Assembly (NCBI GenBank): GCA_963712745.1
Contig: CAVQJC010000020.1
Location: 64,001 to 128,000 of the forward strand
DNA: 64,000 nucleotides
DNA from: an uncultured Chloroflexia bacterium
Lineage (GTDB): Bacteria > Chloroflexota > Limnocylindria > Limnocylindrales > CSP1-4
Direction: 5' to 3'
This document shows, in pieces, positions 1 to 6,003 of the stretch (the first letter of the stretch is position 1; each line of letters begins with the position of its first letter). Under the pieces are notes generated by a model. The model was not told the origin of the DNA, ran no database searches, and was given only the letters and a program-made list of their open reading frames with translations. The translations under genes and the position numbers were made by a program.

Positions 1-183
1 CAGGAGGGGTCCGCCAGCCCCGACCAGCTCCGCGACCGGACGAGCGAAGAGCAGGAGTTGTATGAGTAGCCCCGCGACCGCCAGTTGCCACCACACGAGA
101 TGGACGCGCTCGAGGTTGCGGACCCGTCCACCCATCAGCCGACCGAGCAGCAGGCCGGCGGCGATGGCATAGAGCAGCAGCAT
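1..183 (-). CDS. DUF5317-like membrane protein, N-terminal part (runs off left edge)
   Basis: Not in the ORF track; hand-translated as MLLLYAIAAGLLLGRLMGGRVRNLERVHLVWWQLAVAGLLIQLLLFARPVAELVGAGGPLL. SD GGGAGG at 196-201 (minus). The N-terminal GGRxxNL..W.L pattern is as I recall for DUF5317. Confidence 0.7.
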   Translation of the reverse strand, partial: MLLLYAIAAGLLLGRLMGGRVRNLERVHLVWWQLAVAGLLIQLLLFARPVAELVGAGGPLL

Positions 184-210
184 CGAGTCGCGGGGCCTCC
201 CTATGCAAGA

Positions 211-233
211 CGCCGGCGCTGACGGCGCCGGCG
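211..233 (-). terminator. GC hairpin between the peptide gene and DUF5317 (terminator/attenuator-like)
   Basis: Perfect 9-bp stem CGCCGGCGC/GCGCCGGCG with a 5-nt loop, followed by a short TCTT on the minus strand. Confidence 0.45.
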
Positions 234-322
234 AGGATGTCACTCGGTATCGCGCATGTGGGGTGGGATGGGACCGGCGAACGGCGCGAGGGTGGGCGTC
301 GCCGGCCCCGTGAGTTTGTCGT

Positions 323-409
323 CTACCACCAGCGGATGGGCGCCGCCAGCACGAGCACGAACGCAGCGACCGCAGCGAGGCGGAGTGCGAGATCCTTGTA
401 ACGGCTCAT
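323..409 (-). CDS. 28-aa small hydrophobic peptide MSRYKDLALRLAAVAAFVLVLAAPIRWW
   Basis: SD GGGAG 9 nt before the ATG at 409; basic N-terminus, hydrophobic core, C-terminal RWW; stem-loop (about 270-309) just after the stop. Confidence 0.65.
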   Translation of the reverse strand: MSRYKDLALRLAAVAAFVLVLAAPIRWW

Positions 410-659
410 CCTGTGTATCTCCCAGTGAGTCGGGCCTGGGCCCTGGGTCCGCGAGTGCTCGGGTCTCGGTCGAGGGAGGTGGCTCCCTGACGCCTCAGAT
501 ACTCGCGGCCACGGGTAACACCCTCCATGGCGAAGTCGTACTAGGACCGGGTTTGACGGCGCGCACCAGTCCCGACCGCCCAGCACCGGCAACGACCTCA
601 CCCCACGGGAGCGCAAGTGCCGCCGGGAGACCGGCGCCGGCAGCCCGTATGCTCCAGTC

Positions 660-1238
660 ATGACCGACGACCACCTCAGAGAGACCAGCGTGGAGCGGCG
701 CCTGCTTCACCGGGGCCGATTCATCAACTTCCGCATCGACACCATCGAGGACCCACAGGGCAAGCGCCACACGCGCGAGGTCGTGGAGCACCCCGGCGCC
801 ATCTGCGTCATCCCCATCCACGGCGAGGAGGTGCTGATGGTGCGGCAATGGCGCACGCCCGTGGCCAAGGTCGTGCTCGAGCTGCCGGCAGGGACGCTCG
901 ATCGCATGCCCGACGGGTCCGTGGAGGACCCCGACGATGCGGCTCCGCGCGAGCTCGCGGAGGAGACCGGCTTCCGAGCCGGCTCCTGGCGCAAGCTCGG
1001 GCGTTTCTGGACTGCACCGGGTTTCACCGAGGAGCAGATGCACCTGTACCTTGCCACCGACCTCTGGCCGCTCGAGGACTACCGCGGTCCCGATGTCGAC
1101 GAGTACCTCGACCTCGTGCGGCTGCCCTGGCAGGAGGCGGTAGCGATGGCGGCGCGCGGCGAGGTCGAGGACGCCAAGACGCTGGTCGGCCTGCTCTGGC
1201 TGGGCCGGCTGGCCGACGCGGGCGAGCTACCCGGGTAG
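660..1238 (+). CDS. nudF: NUDIX hydrolase (ADP-ribose pyrophosphatase-like)
   Basis: ELPAG..E...AAPRELAEETG Nudix box, HPGA, PGFT, DAKT motifs. Confidence 0.88.
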   Translation: MTDDHLRETSVERRLLHRGRFINFRIDTIEDPQGKRHTREVVEHPGAICVIPIHGEEVLMVRQWRTPVAKVVLELPAGTLDRMPDGSVEDPDDAAPRELAEETGFRAGSWRKLGRFWTAPGFTEEQMHLYLATDLWPLEDYRGPDVDEYLDLVRLPWQEAVAMAARGEVEDAKTLVGLLWLGRLADAGELPG

Positions 1239-2498: not shown

Positions 2499-3338
2499 AT
2501 GATCGAGCTCGGCGTCTTCGCCAGGGCCTTCCCGTCGGGACCCGCGGCTCAGGTCGCGGGGATGATCAGGGCCGCAGGCTTCACGGCGACCCAGCTCAAC
2601 CTCTCCGCCATCAGGCGGCCAACACTCGATCCGAGCCTCACCGTTCCCGAAGCCGCCACGATCGCCAAGGCGTTCGAGGAGGCTGGCGTTCGGATCTGGG
2701 GCTTGTCCGGCACGTTCAACGCCATCCACCCTGACGAGGCTACGCGCAAGGCAGGCGCCCGTGCCTGCCGCAGCAATATCGCCAGAGCCGCGGTCATGGG
2801 AGCGGAGGTCGTGACTCTTTGCAGCGGTACCCGCGATCGGGAAAGCAAGTGGCGTGCACATCCCGACAACCGCTCGCCCGCGGCATGGCGGGACTTGCGC
2901 ATCACCCTCGATTCGCTGATACCGGCAGCGAGCGAGTCAGGTGTACGACTCGGCATCGAGCCCGAGCCCGGCAACGTCATCCACGATGCCAAGTCTGCGA
3001 TGCGGCTGTTCGCCGAGCTGGGCGATGACGCCCGCTATCTGGCAGTCGTCCTCGACCCTGCGAACCTTCTGACCGTGCGCACGCTGCCGCACCAGCGGGA
3101 GATCCTGACCGAAGCTTTCGACGGGCTCGGGGAACAGACCGCGGCAATGCATGCCAAGGACGTCGTCGCGGCGGGATATGCAGCACCTGGCATGGGCGGG
3201 ATGGACTACGAGCTCGTGATGCGACTTCACGCCTCACTGCCCCGGCCCGTCCCCGTCATCGCGCAGGATCTCACCGCCGACGATGCTGCGCGCGTGGCCT
3301 CCTTTCTGTCCGAGCGCGCAGCTAGCGCCGCGCCGTGA
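2499..3338 (+). CDS. Sugar phosphate isomerase/epimerase (xylose-isomerase-like TIM barrel)
   Basis: LGIEPE, LDPANL and HAKD metal-binding motifs. Confidence 0.85.
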   Translation: MIELGVFARAFPSGPAAQVAGMIRAAGFTATQLNLSAIRRPTLDPSLTVPEAATIAKAFEEAGVRIWGLSGTFNAIHPDEATRKAGARACRSNIARAAVMGAEVVTLCSGTRDRESKWRAHPDNRSPAAWRDLRITLDSLIPAASESGVRLGIEPEPGNVIHDAKSAMRLFAELGDDARYLAVVLDPANLLTVRTLPHQREILTEAFDGLGEQTAAMHAKDVVAAGYAAPGMGGMDYELVMRLHASLPRPVPVIAQDLTADDAARVASFLSERAASAAP

Positions 3339-3438
3339 TCGCATCCCGCCCCAGGGGCGCCGGCGAGTATCTGCCGACGACGACAGAGCCGGTACGGCCA
3401 GGTCGACCGGATCTCGAGCTGCATCGGGAGCCACGCGC

Positions 3439-4196
3439 TTGATCGCCAAGAAGGCACGCGTGCTCGTCATCGGCCGCCAAGCCCGGCAACGGCCGCCCGG
3501 GCTTCCCGAGACGGCCACGGGTGCCAGCTACGTGATGGCCGACGACATCGGGGCCGCTAGGGCCAACCTCGAAGACTGCGACGTCGTGTTCCACTACGGG
3601 CCTCCACTGGAATCGCTCGAGTCGACTTGGCACGCCGCCAGGCGATTGCGTTGGCTGCACATCGGTGCCGTGGGGGTCGAACGGGCGCTCTTTCCTGAAC
3701 TCATCAGGAGCGACGTGACAGTCACCAACAGCCGCGGCGTCTTCGACGCTCCGCTCTCCGAGTACGTACTGGCGCTGATGCTCGCGCTGGTCAAGGACGT
3801 GCCGGGGACTGTTCGGGCTCAGGCCGCACGCCGATGGCACCCTCGCGTCCTCGGGTCGTTGTCTGGCGGACGGGTAGTCATCCTGGGTGCTGGCACGGTG
3901 GCACGGGCAGCGGGATGGCTGCTCCGATCGATCGGCCTCGAGGTCACGCTCGTGGCGCGCTCCGGCCGTGAAGGCGAGCCCGGCGAAGGCTGGATCCATG
4001 CCGCCAGCGACCTGCATCGCCTGCTTCCGGCTGCCGATTGGCTCGTCATCGCCGCGCCCCTCACGGCTGAGACCAGAGGTCTCATCGGTGCCCGTGAGCT
4101 CGAGGCACTGCCTCGCGGAGCACGCCTCGTCAACGTCGGTCGCGGCCCGATCGTCGTCGAGGAGGCCCTCATCAGGGCCGTAGATTCGGGACGAGA
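3439..4196 (+). pseudogene. D-2-hydroxyacid dehydrogenase, C-terminally truncated
   Basis: GAGTVA Rossmann motif, PLTAET and VNVGRG are present. Homology ends at VDSGR where the convergent gene's stop begins; the ALDV/EPL/TPH catalytic segment is absent. TTG start after GGGAG. Confidence 0.75.
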
Positions 4197-5006
4197 TCAG
4201 GCGATGAGCAGGATGTGGTTCGGGTCGATCAGCTCCCGGATGAGGCGGACCTGGTCTGTCGTCGGCGCCTCGGTGGTCGGGCAGTCTTCGGGTATCAGGG
4301 GGCGGAAGCTCATGGCGTCGAGCACCTGCTCCAGTTCGACGCCGGGATGGACCGAGAGAAGCTGCATCTCCTTCGTCTCGGCGTCGAACCCGAACACGGC
4401 CTTGTCGGTGATGACGCGCCAGGGCCCGCCCGGATCCATCCCCAGCTGCTCGCGAGAATCCCCGCCATCGAGGTGCCCCACACTGGTGATGAAGTCGACG
4501 CGCTCCACGAAGGTCCGCTTGCGCAGGTCGGTGATCACGATGGGTCGCTTGACGTAGGCGAAGTGGTCGGTCTGGGCGAGGCATCCCACGAGCCGGACCT
4601 TGGGCTTCCGATAGTCGCCGATGGCGGTGATGTTCAGGTTGCCGAAGCGGTCGATCTGGGGAGCCGAGTCGAACGACACGTCGAACTGACGGCGCGCAAG
4701 CATGTCGCACTTGTCGCCCGTGTGGGCCATCTGGCTCGCACAGGGCCAGGTGGTCACATGGTGCTGCGTCAGTTCTGGAGGGATCCGCGTCAGGTCCGGG
4801 CTGAGGAGGTTGCCCCAGTAGATGGTGATGTCCGGGGCATGTGTCAGCTGCGCCAGCCTGGCTGAGGCGATCGGGATCCCGACCGCCAGCGTGAACGCCC
4901 GTCCAGCAGTGCCGACTCCGACGAACGCGAGGTCGCCATCACGCAGCTCCCGGGAGGCAGCGACGACCAACAACTCGTTGAGGGTGTAATCGTCCGCGTA
5001 GGCCAT
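4197..5006 (-). CDS. Family I CoA-transferase-fold beta subunit (GctB/IpdB-like)
   Basis: AASRELRDG..FVGVG, THAPD, QIDRFGNLN, FVERVDFITS; canonical YESG Glu absent. Confidence 0.85.
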   Translation of the reverse strand: MAYADDYTLNELLVVAASRELRDGDLAFVGVGTAGRAFTLAVGIPIASARLAQLTHAPDITIYWGNLLSPDLTRIPPELTQHHVTTWPCASQMAHTGDKCDMLARRQFDVSFDSAPQIDRFGNLNITAIGDYRKPKVRLVGCLAQTDHFAYVKRPIVITDLRKRTFVERVDFITSVGHLDGGDSREQLGMDPGGPWRVITDKAVFGFDAETKEMQLLSVHPGVELEQVLDAMSFRPLIPEDCPTTEAPTTDQVRLIRELIDPNHILLIA

Positions 5007-5018
5007 CGGATTCGACTC

Positions 5019-5900
5019 CTAATGTACTGAGAGCTCGAAGATGCGCTGGGGAGTCAGCGCCTTTTGCAGGTACTCCCAGTGATCCTCGACGCCGTGGATG
5101 TACTTCTCCGCGTACTCGTCGAAGCGACCGCCCTTGGAGCACTCCTGGTAGTACTCCATGTGTGCGACGTCCTCGTCGTAGTAACCATCACAGCTGAGCG
5201 GATGCGCACCGAATGGCGCCTCGACGATGGCTTCGACCCACAGATGCGGGATGTAGGTCAGGTTGGGCCGTCGCAGGATCTCCTCATGCGGGACGATCTT
5301 CTCCACCGTGACGATCAGCCGGTTCGCCGCCTTGGCCATGATGGGATCGATGTCGTCGCTGTCCCGCTGCACCGGGAACTGCACGTTCCCGTACTCGTCC
5401 CCGACGTAGCCGTGGAGAACGGTGAAGTCGGCGACGGCTGCCTCTACGGCGTGATAGGTCTTGCCGGTGAAGGGGCAGACGATCTCGCGGATCTGCTCCT
5501 TGTTGTAGGCGGCCATCCCGGTGCCCATCAGGACATCGGTGGGCATGAACGAGATGCCCTGTGCAGCCGCGCGGAACCGCGCGATCATCGACGTCTCCGG
5601 GAAGTCACGAATCTCGATCGATCCCTGCTCGACGCCGCGCCGGAAGTTGTAGGCCATCCCGAATTGGAAGAGCCCCTCGTAGACCGCTTCCACCCGCTTC
5701 ACGGCGCCGGCACCGGCGAGCATGTCCATGGTGAAGCCCGCCGGGAAGGCCAGGATCCGAAGATCCGAAACACCCTGACGGATGAGCTCCCTGACGAACG
5801 CGGCCGGCGACCGCCTGATGATGCTGCCACCGACCGCGATCGTGCTGCCGGAAGGCACCAACCGGGCAGCCTCTGCCATCGTCACGAGCTTGCGTTTCAT
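5019..5900 (-). CDS. Family I CoA-transferase-fold alpha subunit (GctA/IpdA-like)
   Basis: IAVGG...RSP, DEYGNV, IVTVEKIV, APFGAHP..C.GYY. Confidence 0.87.
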   Translation of the reverse strand: MKRKLVTMAEAARLVPSGSTIAVGGSIIRRSPAAFVRELIRQGVSDLRILAFPAGFTMDMLAGAGAVKRVEAVYEGLFQFGMAYNFRRGVEQGSIEIRDFPETSMIARFRAAAQGISFMPTDVLMGTGMAAYNKEQIREIVCPFTGKTYHAVEAAVADFTVLHGYVGDEYGNVQFPVQRDSDDIDPIMAKAANRLIVTVEKIVPHEEILRRPNLTYIPHLWVEAIVEAPFGAHPLSCDGYYDEDVAHMEYYQECSKGGRFDEYAEKYIHGVEDHWEYLQKALTPQRIFELSVH

Positions 5901-6003
5901 CTTGGGCTGCCCCTCTCTCGAACCTCGCTCAATGTCTGATGCGTGAAGCCGTCGGAATCTGAGCGGAATGACGTGACGACCAGATTGCCATCAGTACACC
6001 TGC

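Follow-up and report, generated by a model that had tools for sequence, protein, structure and literature searches.

The beginning of a 64,000-nucleotide stretch of DNA from an uncultured Chloroflexia bacterium (assembly GCA_963712745.1, contig CAVQJC010000020.1; this whole stretch, G000:C20:64001-128000 of a 4.2-Mb assembly in 20 contigs, is referred to below as the window) is best explained, in view of its gene content and conservation, as the head of a three-gene operon for signalling by cyclic dimeric GMP (c-di-GMP). The operon would consist of a micropeptide gene, a gene encoding a membrane protein of the DUF5317 family and a gene encoding a diguanylate cyclase with the domain order GAF-GAF-GGDEF. 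The short open reading frame (sORF) encoding the micropeptide, the two hairpins following it, the Shine-Dalgarno (SD)-like sites of both genes and the DUF5317 gene itself are all located on the minus strand, in the same orientation. The arrangement suggests that second-messenger signalling in uncultured Chloroflexota has a peptide-linked input of a kind not described before.

The sORF (MSRYKDLALRLAAVAAFVLVLAAPIRWW; 409..326, minus strand) consists of 28 codons followed by the stop codon TAG (325..323), and is preceded by an SD-like GGGAGA (423..418, minus strand) with 8 nt between the end of this site and the ATG. The GGAG core is found at the same position before each of the orthologous copies listed. 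The predicted product is a signal-peptide-like micropeptide in which a basic N-terminus leads into a hydrophobic core of about 15 residues, with AAP-x-R-W as the tail. A same-genus set of 30 loci around DUF5317 matches, taken from 24 genomes, was searched for the sORF by tblastn, and it was found upstream of the DUF5317 orthologue in 28 of them, the two loci giving no match (L023 and L029) being weaker, paralogous DUF5317 matches. Among 25 non-redundant loci, the entropy at codon positions 1, 2 and 3 was 0.52, 0.41 and 0.95, the third position being about twice as variable as the first two, and the pN/pS ratio was 0.43 in frame vs 1.35 and 2.13 when the frame was shifted. To the extent that a comparison of genomes can decide this, the sORF is a genuine gene, conserved and under purifying selection, and its translation is deduced from this conservation. 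An SD-led sORF of 28 residues had been proposed at this place in the initial annotation, and that proposal is borne out. The features by which small membrane proteins are recognized, namely a short conserved ORF, a single hydrophobic segment and purifying selection, are all found in its sequence.

A profile built from the 28 distinct peptides was used to search a family set of 301 Limnocylindria genomes. It matched 47 genomes at E <= 1.4e-5, at one place per genome; this tally includes genome G439, which is flagged as unpublished. The matching genomes belong to five Limnocylindria genera: the genus to which the present genome belongs (19 out of 19, this genome included), g18 (19 out of 19), g19 (7 genomes), g59 and g61 (one genome each). 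Eight further matches with E values of 7.6e-4 to 8.4e-3 look like chance, and the profile gave no match in the remaining genera of this set. The peptides are 27-29 residues long. M1, A23, P24, R26 and W27 are invariant in all the 28 distinct sequences, and L11, F17, L19, L21 and A22 are nearly so. The conservation is strongest in the C-terminal 11 residues, and it extends to the positive charge of the N-terminus and to the hydrophobic core. Fifteen of the 28 peptides terminate at W27; the others continue with W, F, Y, N, D, C, V, T, S or A. The tandem Trp with which the copy in this genome ends, singled out in the initial annotation, is present in 5 of the 28 and is not a feature of the family. 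No Pfam or NCBIfam family was matched by the peptide. A collection of 15 billion proteins does not contain the exact peptide of the window, and the sole record returned when four of the peptides were looked up exactly was a 29-residue orthologue from another genus, described as a 'hypothetical protein'.

The association with DUF5317 is strict. A DUF5317 gene follows the peptide gene in 46/46 distinct peptide-bearing loci, with a gap of 70-304 nt (mostly 115-150 nt), and a GAF/GGDEF match comes next in 41 of them, some of the five misses being short loci. These figures indicate that the trio is therefore a conserved unit. Short hydrophobic ORFs of a similar kind also accompany DUF5317 outside these genera. 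In a class-level set of 30 DUF5317 loci drawn across the class, in which a mini-ORF was defined as hydrophobic and ending in [RK]W plus 0-3 residues, an RW- or KW-tailed mini-ORF was present on the DUF5317 strand in 24 loci and on the opposite strand in none, in agreement with the link between DUF5317 genes and short peptides ending in K/R-W given in the initial annotation. The mini-ORF lies upstream of DUF5317 in 7 of these 24 loci (LAAPFRW type) and 200-450 nt downstream of it in the other 17, where the tails read ..GAGMRW.. or ..LEAGxRW... Since the gene order flips between sister lineages, the micropeptide is, on the evidence of gene arrangement, a partner of DUF5317 and not merely its leader; this flip, seen from one sister subfamily to another, excludes a role as leader alone and is one of the contributions of the present analysis. 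In a phylum set of 20 DUF5317 loci from other Chloroflexota families, in which mini-ORFs were found by a regular expression and not by a profile, such an ORF was present in 4 loci (duplicated in one of them), and again never on the opposite strand.

Several of these loci show features of their own. The downstream RW-tailed mini-ORFs were seen in the sister-lineage loci L036, L045, L047, L051, L057, L058 and others, and both downstream kinds occur in tandem in L047 and L058. In eight class-level loci, the GGDEF-domain gene is located upstream and not downstream of DUF5317; seven of these carry GAG-type peptides alone or beside a LEAG-type one, and the eighth is L034. In L137 (G591:C28:38300-42800), from a distant Chloroflexota family, the strand of DUF5317 carries two identical mini-ORF copies (..LVMAAGADSRWA), separated by about 150 nt. 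In the metagenome-assembled loci L022, L024, L025, L028 and L073, the DUF5317 frame is broken (two to three tblastn pieces or a short ORF) and the peptide ORF is intact; these broken frames may be assembly errors or decaying copies.

In a maximum-likelihood tree of 67 DUF5317 proteins, the sequences cluster by peptide type. The LAAP label changes once in the quick tree (branch support 100) and twice in the careful tree, the second change being due to a single aberrant, frameshifted row (L026); the mean number of changes with shuffled labels was 19.9, and none of 500 shuffles gave a value as low. Since kinship alone gives some clustering, this result is supportive of the co-diversification of the peptide type with DUF5317 rather than a proof of it.

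The DUF5317 gene begins at 183 (ATG 183..181, minus strand; SD-like GGGAGG at 201..196); its first 61 codons occupy 183..1 and it continues to G000:C20:63599, outside the window, encoding 194 amino acids in all. The SD-led DUF5317-like gene of the initial annotation is thereby confirmed: the product matches Pfam DUF5317 (PF17248) with an E value of 6.3e-25 and 88.4 bits (cut-off 25), over model positions 2-150 of 151. HMMER gave 2521 representative homologues at E <= 0.001. The family was detected in 237 of the 301 Limnocylindria genomes and in 77 of the 251 Chloroflexota genomes sampled, a count which includes G689 (flagged as unpublished, none of its DNA having been read), and also in Thermus and Thermotoga control genomes; neither 'DUF5317' nor 'PF17248' was mentioned in the literature searched. 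Eleven residues are invariant in 74 full-length members (N76, G88, N92, G101, M103, P104, L139, D141, S156, G158 and D159), and D141 and D159 each belong to a GD motif. The AlphaFold2 model of the protein, a confident one (predicted local distance difference test score 93, predicted template modelling score 0.86), consists of five long helices and a small strand-containing region (residues 99-156). Lys and Arg residues cluster in the loops 15-28, 75-78 and 176-177, and the region 99-156 has none of them and three acidic residues. By the positive-inside rule, the N-terminus and the region 99-156 with its invariant Asn and Asp residues would face outwards, and the distribution of the basic residues therefore suggests that the invariant residues lie on the side where the peptide tail would be. 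In comparisons with solved structures, the model is without any significant relative: Foldseek against the PDB gave nothing at E <= 0.001 (best row E 4.2), the best Z score in an all-against-all structure alignment was 6.1, for a designed helical barrel, and a sequence profile of the protein gave only chance matches in the PDB (E >= 0.17). A search of the ESM Atlas yielded no usable match. The prediction of a complex between DUF5317 and the peptide scored 0.30 vs a mark of 0.32, and, having been run without controls, is evidence neither way.

The third gene (G000:C20:63593..61620, minus strand, outside the window) starts 5 nt after the DUF5317 stop codon and encodes a predicted cytosolic GAF-GAF-GGDEF protein of 657 amino acids. 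It matches PF00990 (E 6e-46) and TIGR00254 (E 1.2e-47), and its translation has an intact RYGGDEF motif and an intact preceding inhibitory site, RTSD (RxxD), which are the sequence features of a GGDEF diguanylate cyclase. The link of DUF5317 with c-di-GMP genes, for which the initial annotation had named HD-GYP/sensor genes, therefore holds at this locus, as it does at the second DUF5317 copy of the genome, which follows an HD-GYP-type gene; the HD-GYP or kinase gene that was to be sought by extending the contig leftwards was not found there, a diguanylate cyclase being found instead. Domain fusions in homologous proteins link the two families directly: P0123 is a DUF5317-GAF-GGDEF fusion, 54% identical to the present DUF5317 over that part, and P0237 is a DUF5317-PAS-GAF-GGDEF fusion. 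These fusions suggest that the two genes here are thus a split membrane-anchored cyclase, DUF5317 being its input module. Other homologues are DUF5317-MFS or MFS-DUF5317 fusions, in which the MFS part is of the efflux type. Exact, short, low-depth contigs over the cyclase and DUF5317 genes were present in three estuary metatranscriptome libraries. One RNA-library contig spans the DUF5317/GGDEF junction (L001 9522-9672; depth of the library contigs 2-4), which gives a weak hint of the co-transcription of the two genes, DNA carry-over remaining a possible source of this contig.

Between the peptide gene and DUF5317, the two hairpins which the initial annotation had placed near 270-309 and 211-233 were both found, and both are conserved. 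Hairpin 1 (309..270, minus strand) has a stem of 11-12 bp including one G-U pair and an 18-nt loop containing the conserved CTCGCGCC (290..283). In an alignment of 19 sequences, 6 of its 12 pairs are changed on both sides and 90% of the cells are paired. The loop sequence is complementary to a conserved GGCGCGAG located 30 nt downstream (8 pairs, 83% of the cells paired, one compensatory change in the same 19 sequences), and a GCGCGA at 250..255 (minus strand) is the candidate partner in the window; the two would form a candidate H-type pseudoknot ahead of a terminator-like hairpin. The covariation score of the whole structure was 0.115 vs 0.074 in shuffles, none of 500 reaching it. Hairpin 2 (233..211, minus strand) is formed by CGCCGGCGC, a 5-nt loop and GCGCCGGCG, with nine perfect G/C pairs; 27 nt separate its end from the start codon of DUF5317. 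Its stem is invariant in 19/19 spacers of the core genus, where the length of the loop varies, and other clades carry a different, equally strong stem, AACGGCGCG..CGCGCCGTT. A strong hairpin with a short loop was found in 46/46 spacers, its end lying 19-91 nt (median 30.5) upstream of the DUF5317 start. An uninterrupted stem of at least 9 bp was present in 45/46 spacers vs 18.5% of 1500 random 140-nt genome windows and 13% of 920 shuffles.

The 10-nt tail after hairpin 2 is enriched in T (fraction 0.32 vs 0.15 in the spacer, n=46) and includes at least four T in 22/46 spacers. With its stem kept and its tail weakly T-enriched, hairpin 2 is terminator-like. A scan for hairpins plus U-tracts detected no canonical terminator in the window, and hairpin 2 fails a simple rule of five T out of eight. 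The claim in the initial annotation that the hairpins let the peptide mRNA exceed the downstream mRNA is supported to the extent that both are conserved and lie where they could have this effect. The interval between hairpin 2 and DUF5317 is too short for a promoter, so that read-through would account most simply for the expression of the downstream genes. The folding of the whole spacer is no better than that of shuffles (z -0.91), so that the case for structure is one of conservation and covariation only. Counted from the stop codon, hairpin 1 comes after 0 to about 25 nt in the different spacers, a variation which argues against tight ribosome-coupled attenuation. When the operon head (L001 9000-11000) was searched with Rfam 15 at E <= 1, only a chance-level match to veev_FSE was obtained (21 bits vs a gathering threshold of 55).

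Upstream of the sORF, about 170 nt (410..580, minus strand) are strongly conserved in alignments of 18 same-genus loci. The invariant blocks found in these 18 species are GGTGCG, GTCCTAGTAC, CCATGGAGGGTG, GTCAGGG..CCCTCGACCGAG, CGAGCACTCG and CAGGGC..GCCCG. The block GTCCTAGTAC (547..538, minus strand) is a probable -10-containing element, which would be followed by a leader of about 125 nt; the motif recurs in L016, L028, L071 and L072, from other clades, and in L028 and L071 a TTGAT or TTGAC lies 15 nt upstream of TAGTAC. RNAalifold detected only one compensatory pair in the leader. The region probably combines a promoter element and a conserved leader; other possibilities are a promoter accompanied by an operator, and a leader RNA of a kind not described before. 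GTCCTAGTAC occurs at two more sites in the genome, both apparently within coding sequences, and these genome-wide sites give no sign of a regulon.

The model which we favour, and which seems to us plausible if somewhat short of probable, is that DUF5317 serves a split cyclase as its membrane input module, that the tail of the micropeptide engages the outward-facing side of DUF5317, and that the spacer sets the ratio of the messages. The micropeptide would insert into the membrane so that its N-terminus is cytoplasmic and its tail external. Hairpin 2 would act as a partial terminator or as an RNA-stabilising stop, so that the peptide message might exceed the downstream message or be conditionally uncoupled from it. 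DUF5317 would be a five-helix membrane protein presenting invariant polar residues on its outer side (N99, D141, S156, D159 and others), and the invariant A-A-P-x-R-W tail, R26 in particular, would meet this acidic outer face. As a bound regulatory subunit or a ligand, the peptide would then set the output of the cyclase, raising or lowering it, DUF5317 relaying the contact to the GAF-GAF-GGDEF protein.

Some of the observations weigh against this model. The related genomes on which the conservation is based are non-independent samples, and the insertion of the translated peptide into the membrane and its binding to DUF5317 are steps which we infer. Six of the 30 class-level DUF5317 loci carry no RW mini-ORF, and a GGDEF/GAF or HD_5 match was found within 1.5 kb in 16 of them, so that 14/30 are without a c-di-GMP domain at this distance with the queries used. 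The three metatranscriptome libraries gave no contig over the sORF, and their contigs are uninformative as to the level or the ends of the RNA. Peptide genes are in tandem or twinned in L047, L058 and L137, and both such twin genes and a hairpin following the peptide gene are also typical of loci for the precursors of secreted peptides. Lastly, with about 15 residues, and interrupted by R10 in this genus, the hydrophobic core is rather short to anchor the peptide stably in the membrane and resembles the h-region of a signal peptide more closely, which favours an explanation based on processing.

In that explanation, which we consider rather unlikely while giving it more weight than any other alternative weighed here, the micropeptide would be a cargo-less signal peptide which DUF5317 cleaves by means of its two outward-facing Asp residues or passes to an exporter, releasing an RW-ending C-terminal peptide; the latter could even feed back on the DUF5317-linked cyclase. 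The signal-peptide shape of the precursor (basic n-region, h-region of about 15 residues, A-A-P), the concentration of its conservation in the last 11 residues, the duplication of peptide genes in some relatives, a hairpin which could raise the level of the precursor message, and the fusion of DUF5317 to efflux-type MFS transporters in this and other genomes are all in keeping with it, as are the two invariant Asp in GD motifs. The sequence F-S-x-G-D-x-x-I-x-x-G of DUF5317 resembles the second catalytic motif of signal peptidase II (LspA), and a profile of LspA from this genome and its relatives was compared with the family by hhalign and hmmsearch. The sole hhalign match was to the DUF5317 helix corresponding to the second catalytic-Asp motif, Peptidase_A8 (PF01252) was the commonest secondary Pfam family among the DUF5317 members (4/74, best E 0.35), and the LspA structures 6ryp_A (Z 4.9, root-mean-square deviation 3.5 over 97 residues, 16% identity) and 5dir_A (Z 4.7, 19% identity) showed the highest identities in the structure list. 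All these signals, however, are at noise level: the hhalign probability was 5.8%, the hmmsearch scores were at most 7 bits (Pfam cut-off 25 bits), and the Z scores below 5 are inside a background of unrelated helical bundles reaching 6.1, while Foldseek finds nothing for the model. The membership of DUF5317 in the LspA family was therefore rejected, and a convergent Asp pair is possible. This genome carries its own ordinary lspA. A DUF5317-GAF-GGDEF fusion would be unexpected in a dedicated maturation peptidase, and a Pro immediately after small residues disfavours cleavage by ordinary signal peptidase. The initial annotation had suggested that DUF5317 processes or exports the peptide and should be modelled for a protease active site; the family does have an invariant Asp pair, the model has no fold match above background, and the GAF-GGDEF fusions are no less compatible with a role as sensor or input than with that of a peptidase.

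The remaining alternatives assign the peptide a role apart from DUF5317 or none at all. It is improbable that the sORF is a regulatory leader or ribosome-arrest peptide, the translation of which up to AAPxRW-stop would control the formation of hairpins 1 and 2 and thereby set how far transcription reads through into DUF5317-GGDEF, or how far these genes are translated, the peptide as such being functionless. The position of the sORF upstream of the operon in this lineage, the two conserved hairpins, of which the second is terminator-like and close to the DUF5317 start, the C-terminal conservation peak, as in known arrest peptides, and GC-rich arms which, judged by eye, could pair alternatively are compatible with such a role. 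A leader, however, would not be expected downstream of the gene it controls, which is where the RW mini-ORF lies in 17/24 class-level loci, and the variable distance from the stop codon to hairpin 1, the conservation of the N-terminal charge and hydrophobic core, and the position of the tiny ORF of the paralogous operon directly before an HD-GYP gene, without this spacer, also speak against it. As to a classical 1:2 / 2:3 / 3:4 attenuator, the candidate alternative pairings are short GC runs at variable distances. A Trp-sensing attenuator of the trp-leader type, put forward in the initial annotation on account of tandem Trp codons followed by a terminator, is hardly credible: the copy in this genome does end in W-W and is followed by hairpins, but W27 is the sole invariant Trp, the second Trp being variable, no trp genes come next, and related peptides are encoded downstream of DUF5317, so that the points raised against a leader apply here too. 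It was therefore rejected. We regard as very improbable a type I toxin-like hydrophobic peptide functionally unrelated to DUF5317, the mRNA of which would be silenced by the long conserved 5' leader. The peptide is indeed small and hydrophobic, and the 5' region of about 125 nt is strongly conserved and possibly structured; the linkage with DUF5317 in 46/46 loci, a pairing kept across sister lineages, the single copy per genome and the fact that no antisense RNA or repeat copies were seen do not fit this explanation.

Small single-pass membrane proteins are known to act on sensors: MgrB, SafA and UgtL bind and tune PhoQ, and YoaI does so with EnvZ (PMC12648545). The present micropeptide resembles these proteins in having fewer than 50 residues and one hydrophobic helix, in being encoded with or near a signalling system and in its proposed contact with a sensor in the membrane and at the outer face. 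It differs from them in its target, which would be a five-helix DUF5317 feeding a diguanylate cyclase and not a histidine kinase, in being shorter (27-29 residues) and in its conserved C-terminal A-A-P-x-R-W, there being no sequence relation. In the same 2025 review of bacterial small membrane proteins, neither 'c-di-GMP' nor 'diguanylate' occurs (PMC12648545). If our model is correct, c-di-GMP enzymes would be added to the few systems known to be tuned by proteins of this kind.

As regards the other half of the system, the polytopic N-terminal membrane module fused to PAS/GAF-GGDEF in P0123 and P0237 is comparable to MASE and 7TMR-DISM, which are membrane input domains of c-di-GMP enzymes, whereas DUF5317 is here a separate gene and elsewhere also MFS-fused. 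We know of no MASE or 7TMR-DISM domain with which a dedicated micropeptide gene travels along. Most membrane input domains of c-di-GMP enzymes are without a known signal, and DUF5317 is common and its function undescribed; a dedicated micropeptide which co-diversifies with it is a concrete and testable candidate for its ligand. The analysis contributes the LAAPxRW peptide subfamily, the split GAF-GGDEF arrangement and the covarying RNA between the genes, and suggests that genes of 27-29 codons, mostly missed by gene callers, can be core parts of signalling operons.

Other likenesses concern peptide precursors and their processing. The Firmicutes SHP/Rgg, PrgQ/iCF10 and iAD1 systems have signal-peptide-like pheromone precursors which are matured by Eep and exported by PptAB. 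Like the present sORF, SHP, PrgQ and iAD1 are ORFs of 20-35 residues without cargo, in which a basic start is followed by a hydrophobic body; the last 7-9 residues of the pheromones are conserved and form the active part. In the present locus, however, the partner is DUF5317 plus a c-di-GMP enzyme, and none of Eep, PptAB, Rgg or the RRNPP components was seen. LspA (PF01252; PDB 5DIR, 6RYP) is likewise a small polytopic protein with two invariant Asp near the outer face, and the proposed partner of DUF5317 is signal-peptide-like; the number of helices and the order of the motifs differ, and the peptide has Pro where a lipobox has Cys. The initial annotation had proposed an Agr-like but unrelated system. 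As in AgrD/AgrB, a small precursor is encoded beside a polytopic membrane protein, but the locus lacks the Agr components: the membrane protein does not match the AgrB family (Pfam gave DUF5317 only) and there is no AgrC/AgrA pair, the neighbours being GAF/GGDEF, NUDIX and ROK genes, and the peptide has no Cys or Ser for a thiolactone ring and a tail of only 3-6 residues past the hydrophobic core.

A broader reading, which we think unlikely, is that DUF5317 is an outward-facing peptide-handling membrane domain of a new kind, possibly an LspA-convergent aspartyl peptidase, which would recognise and perhaps cleave a self-encoded, cargo-less signal peptide ending in [small]-x-R-W, forming a peptide-to-c-di-GMP circuit. 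If this were true, the combination of DUF5317 with GAF-GGDEF would make a peptide the direct input to c-di-GMP synthesis, and its combination with an MFS pump would export the peptide. Such a peptide-to-second-messenger circuit would be unlike the Agr, RRNPP or two-component pheromone systems, and a structured RNA, possibly responsive to a ligand or a protein, would gate the peptide:receptor ratio.

The second DUF5317 of this genome (L092, G000:C6:282001-290000; 3913-5904, plus strand) is fused to an MFS transporter and is preceded by a membrane-sensor gene of the HD_5 (HD-GYP) type. The HD-GYP frame is broken in the assembly (ORFs 2415-2969 and 3062-3823), its orthologues being single frames of 450-530 amino acids. 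The locus opens with a tiny hydrophobic ORF (L092 2208..2339) with the tail ..AGSAGIRPI, and a second micropeptide family, M-K-x-R-L-x-R-L ... L-A-G-G-A-S-[LF]-[RK]-G-F, was found by a pattern search at the same place in 21/30 loci of the family. With its tiny ORF and its HD-GYP gene, this locus suggests that each DUF5317 locus of the genome has its own micropeptide and its own c-di-GMP enzyme. A search of the second locus with Rfam gave no match and no c-di-GMP riboswitch.

On the other side of the conserved 5' region, a NUDIX gene is divergently oriented on the plus strand, with its ATG at 660. A TATGCTG (window 650-672) is conserved a few bases before the NUDIX start in all the relatives aligned, which suggests that it is a -10 box and that the mRNA is leaderless or nearly so. 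After the cyclase gene, outside the window, comes a gene encoding a ROK-family regulator with an N-terminal MarR-like helix-turn-helix (L001 6282-7529, minus strand), and beyond it lie sugar ABC-transporter-like ORFs.

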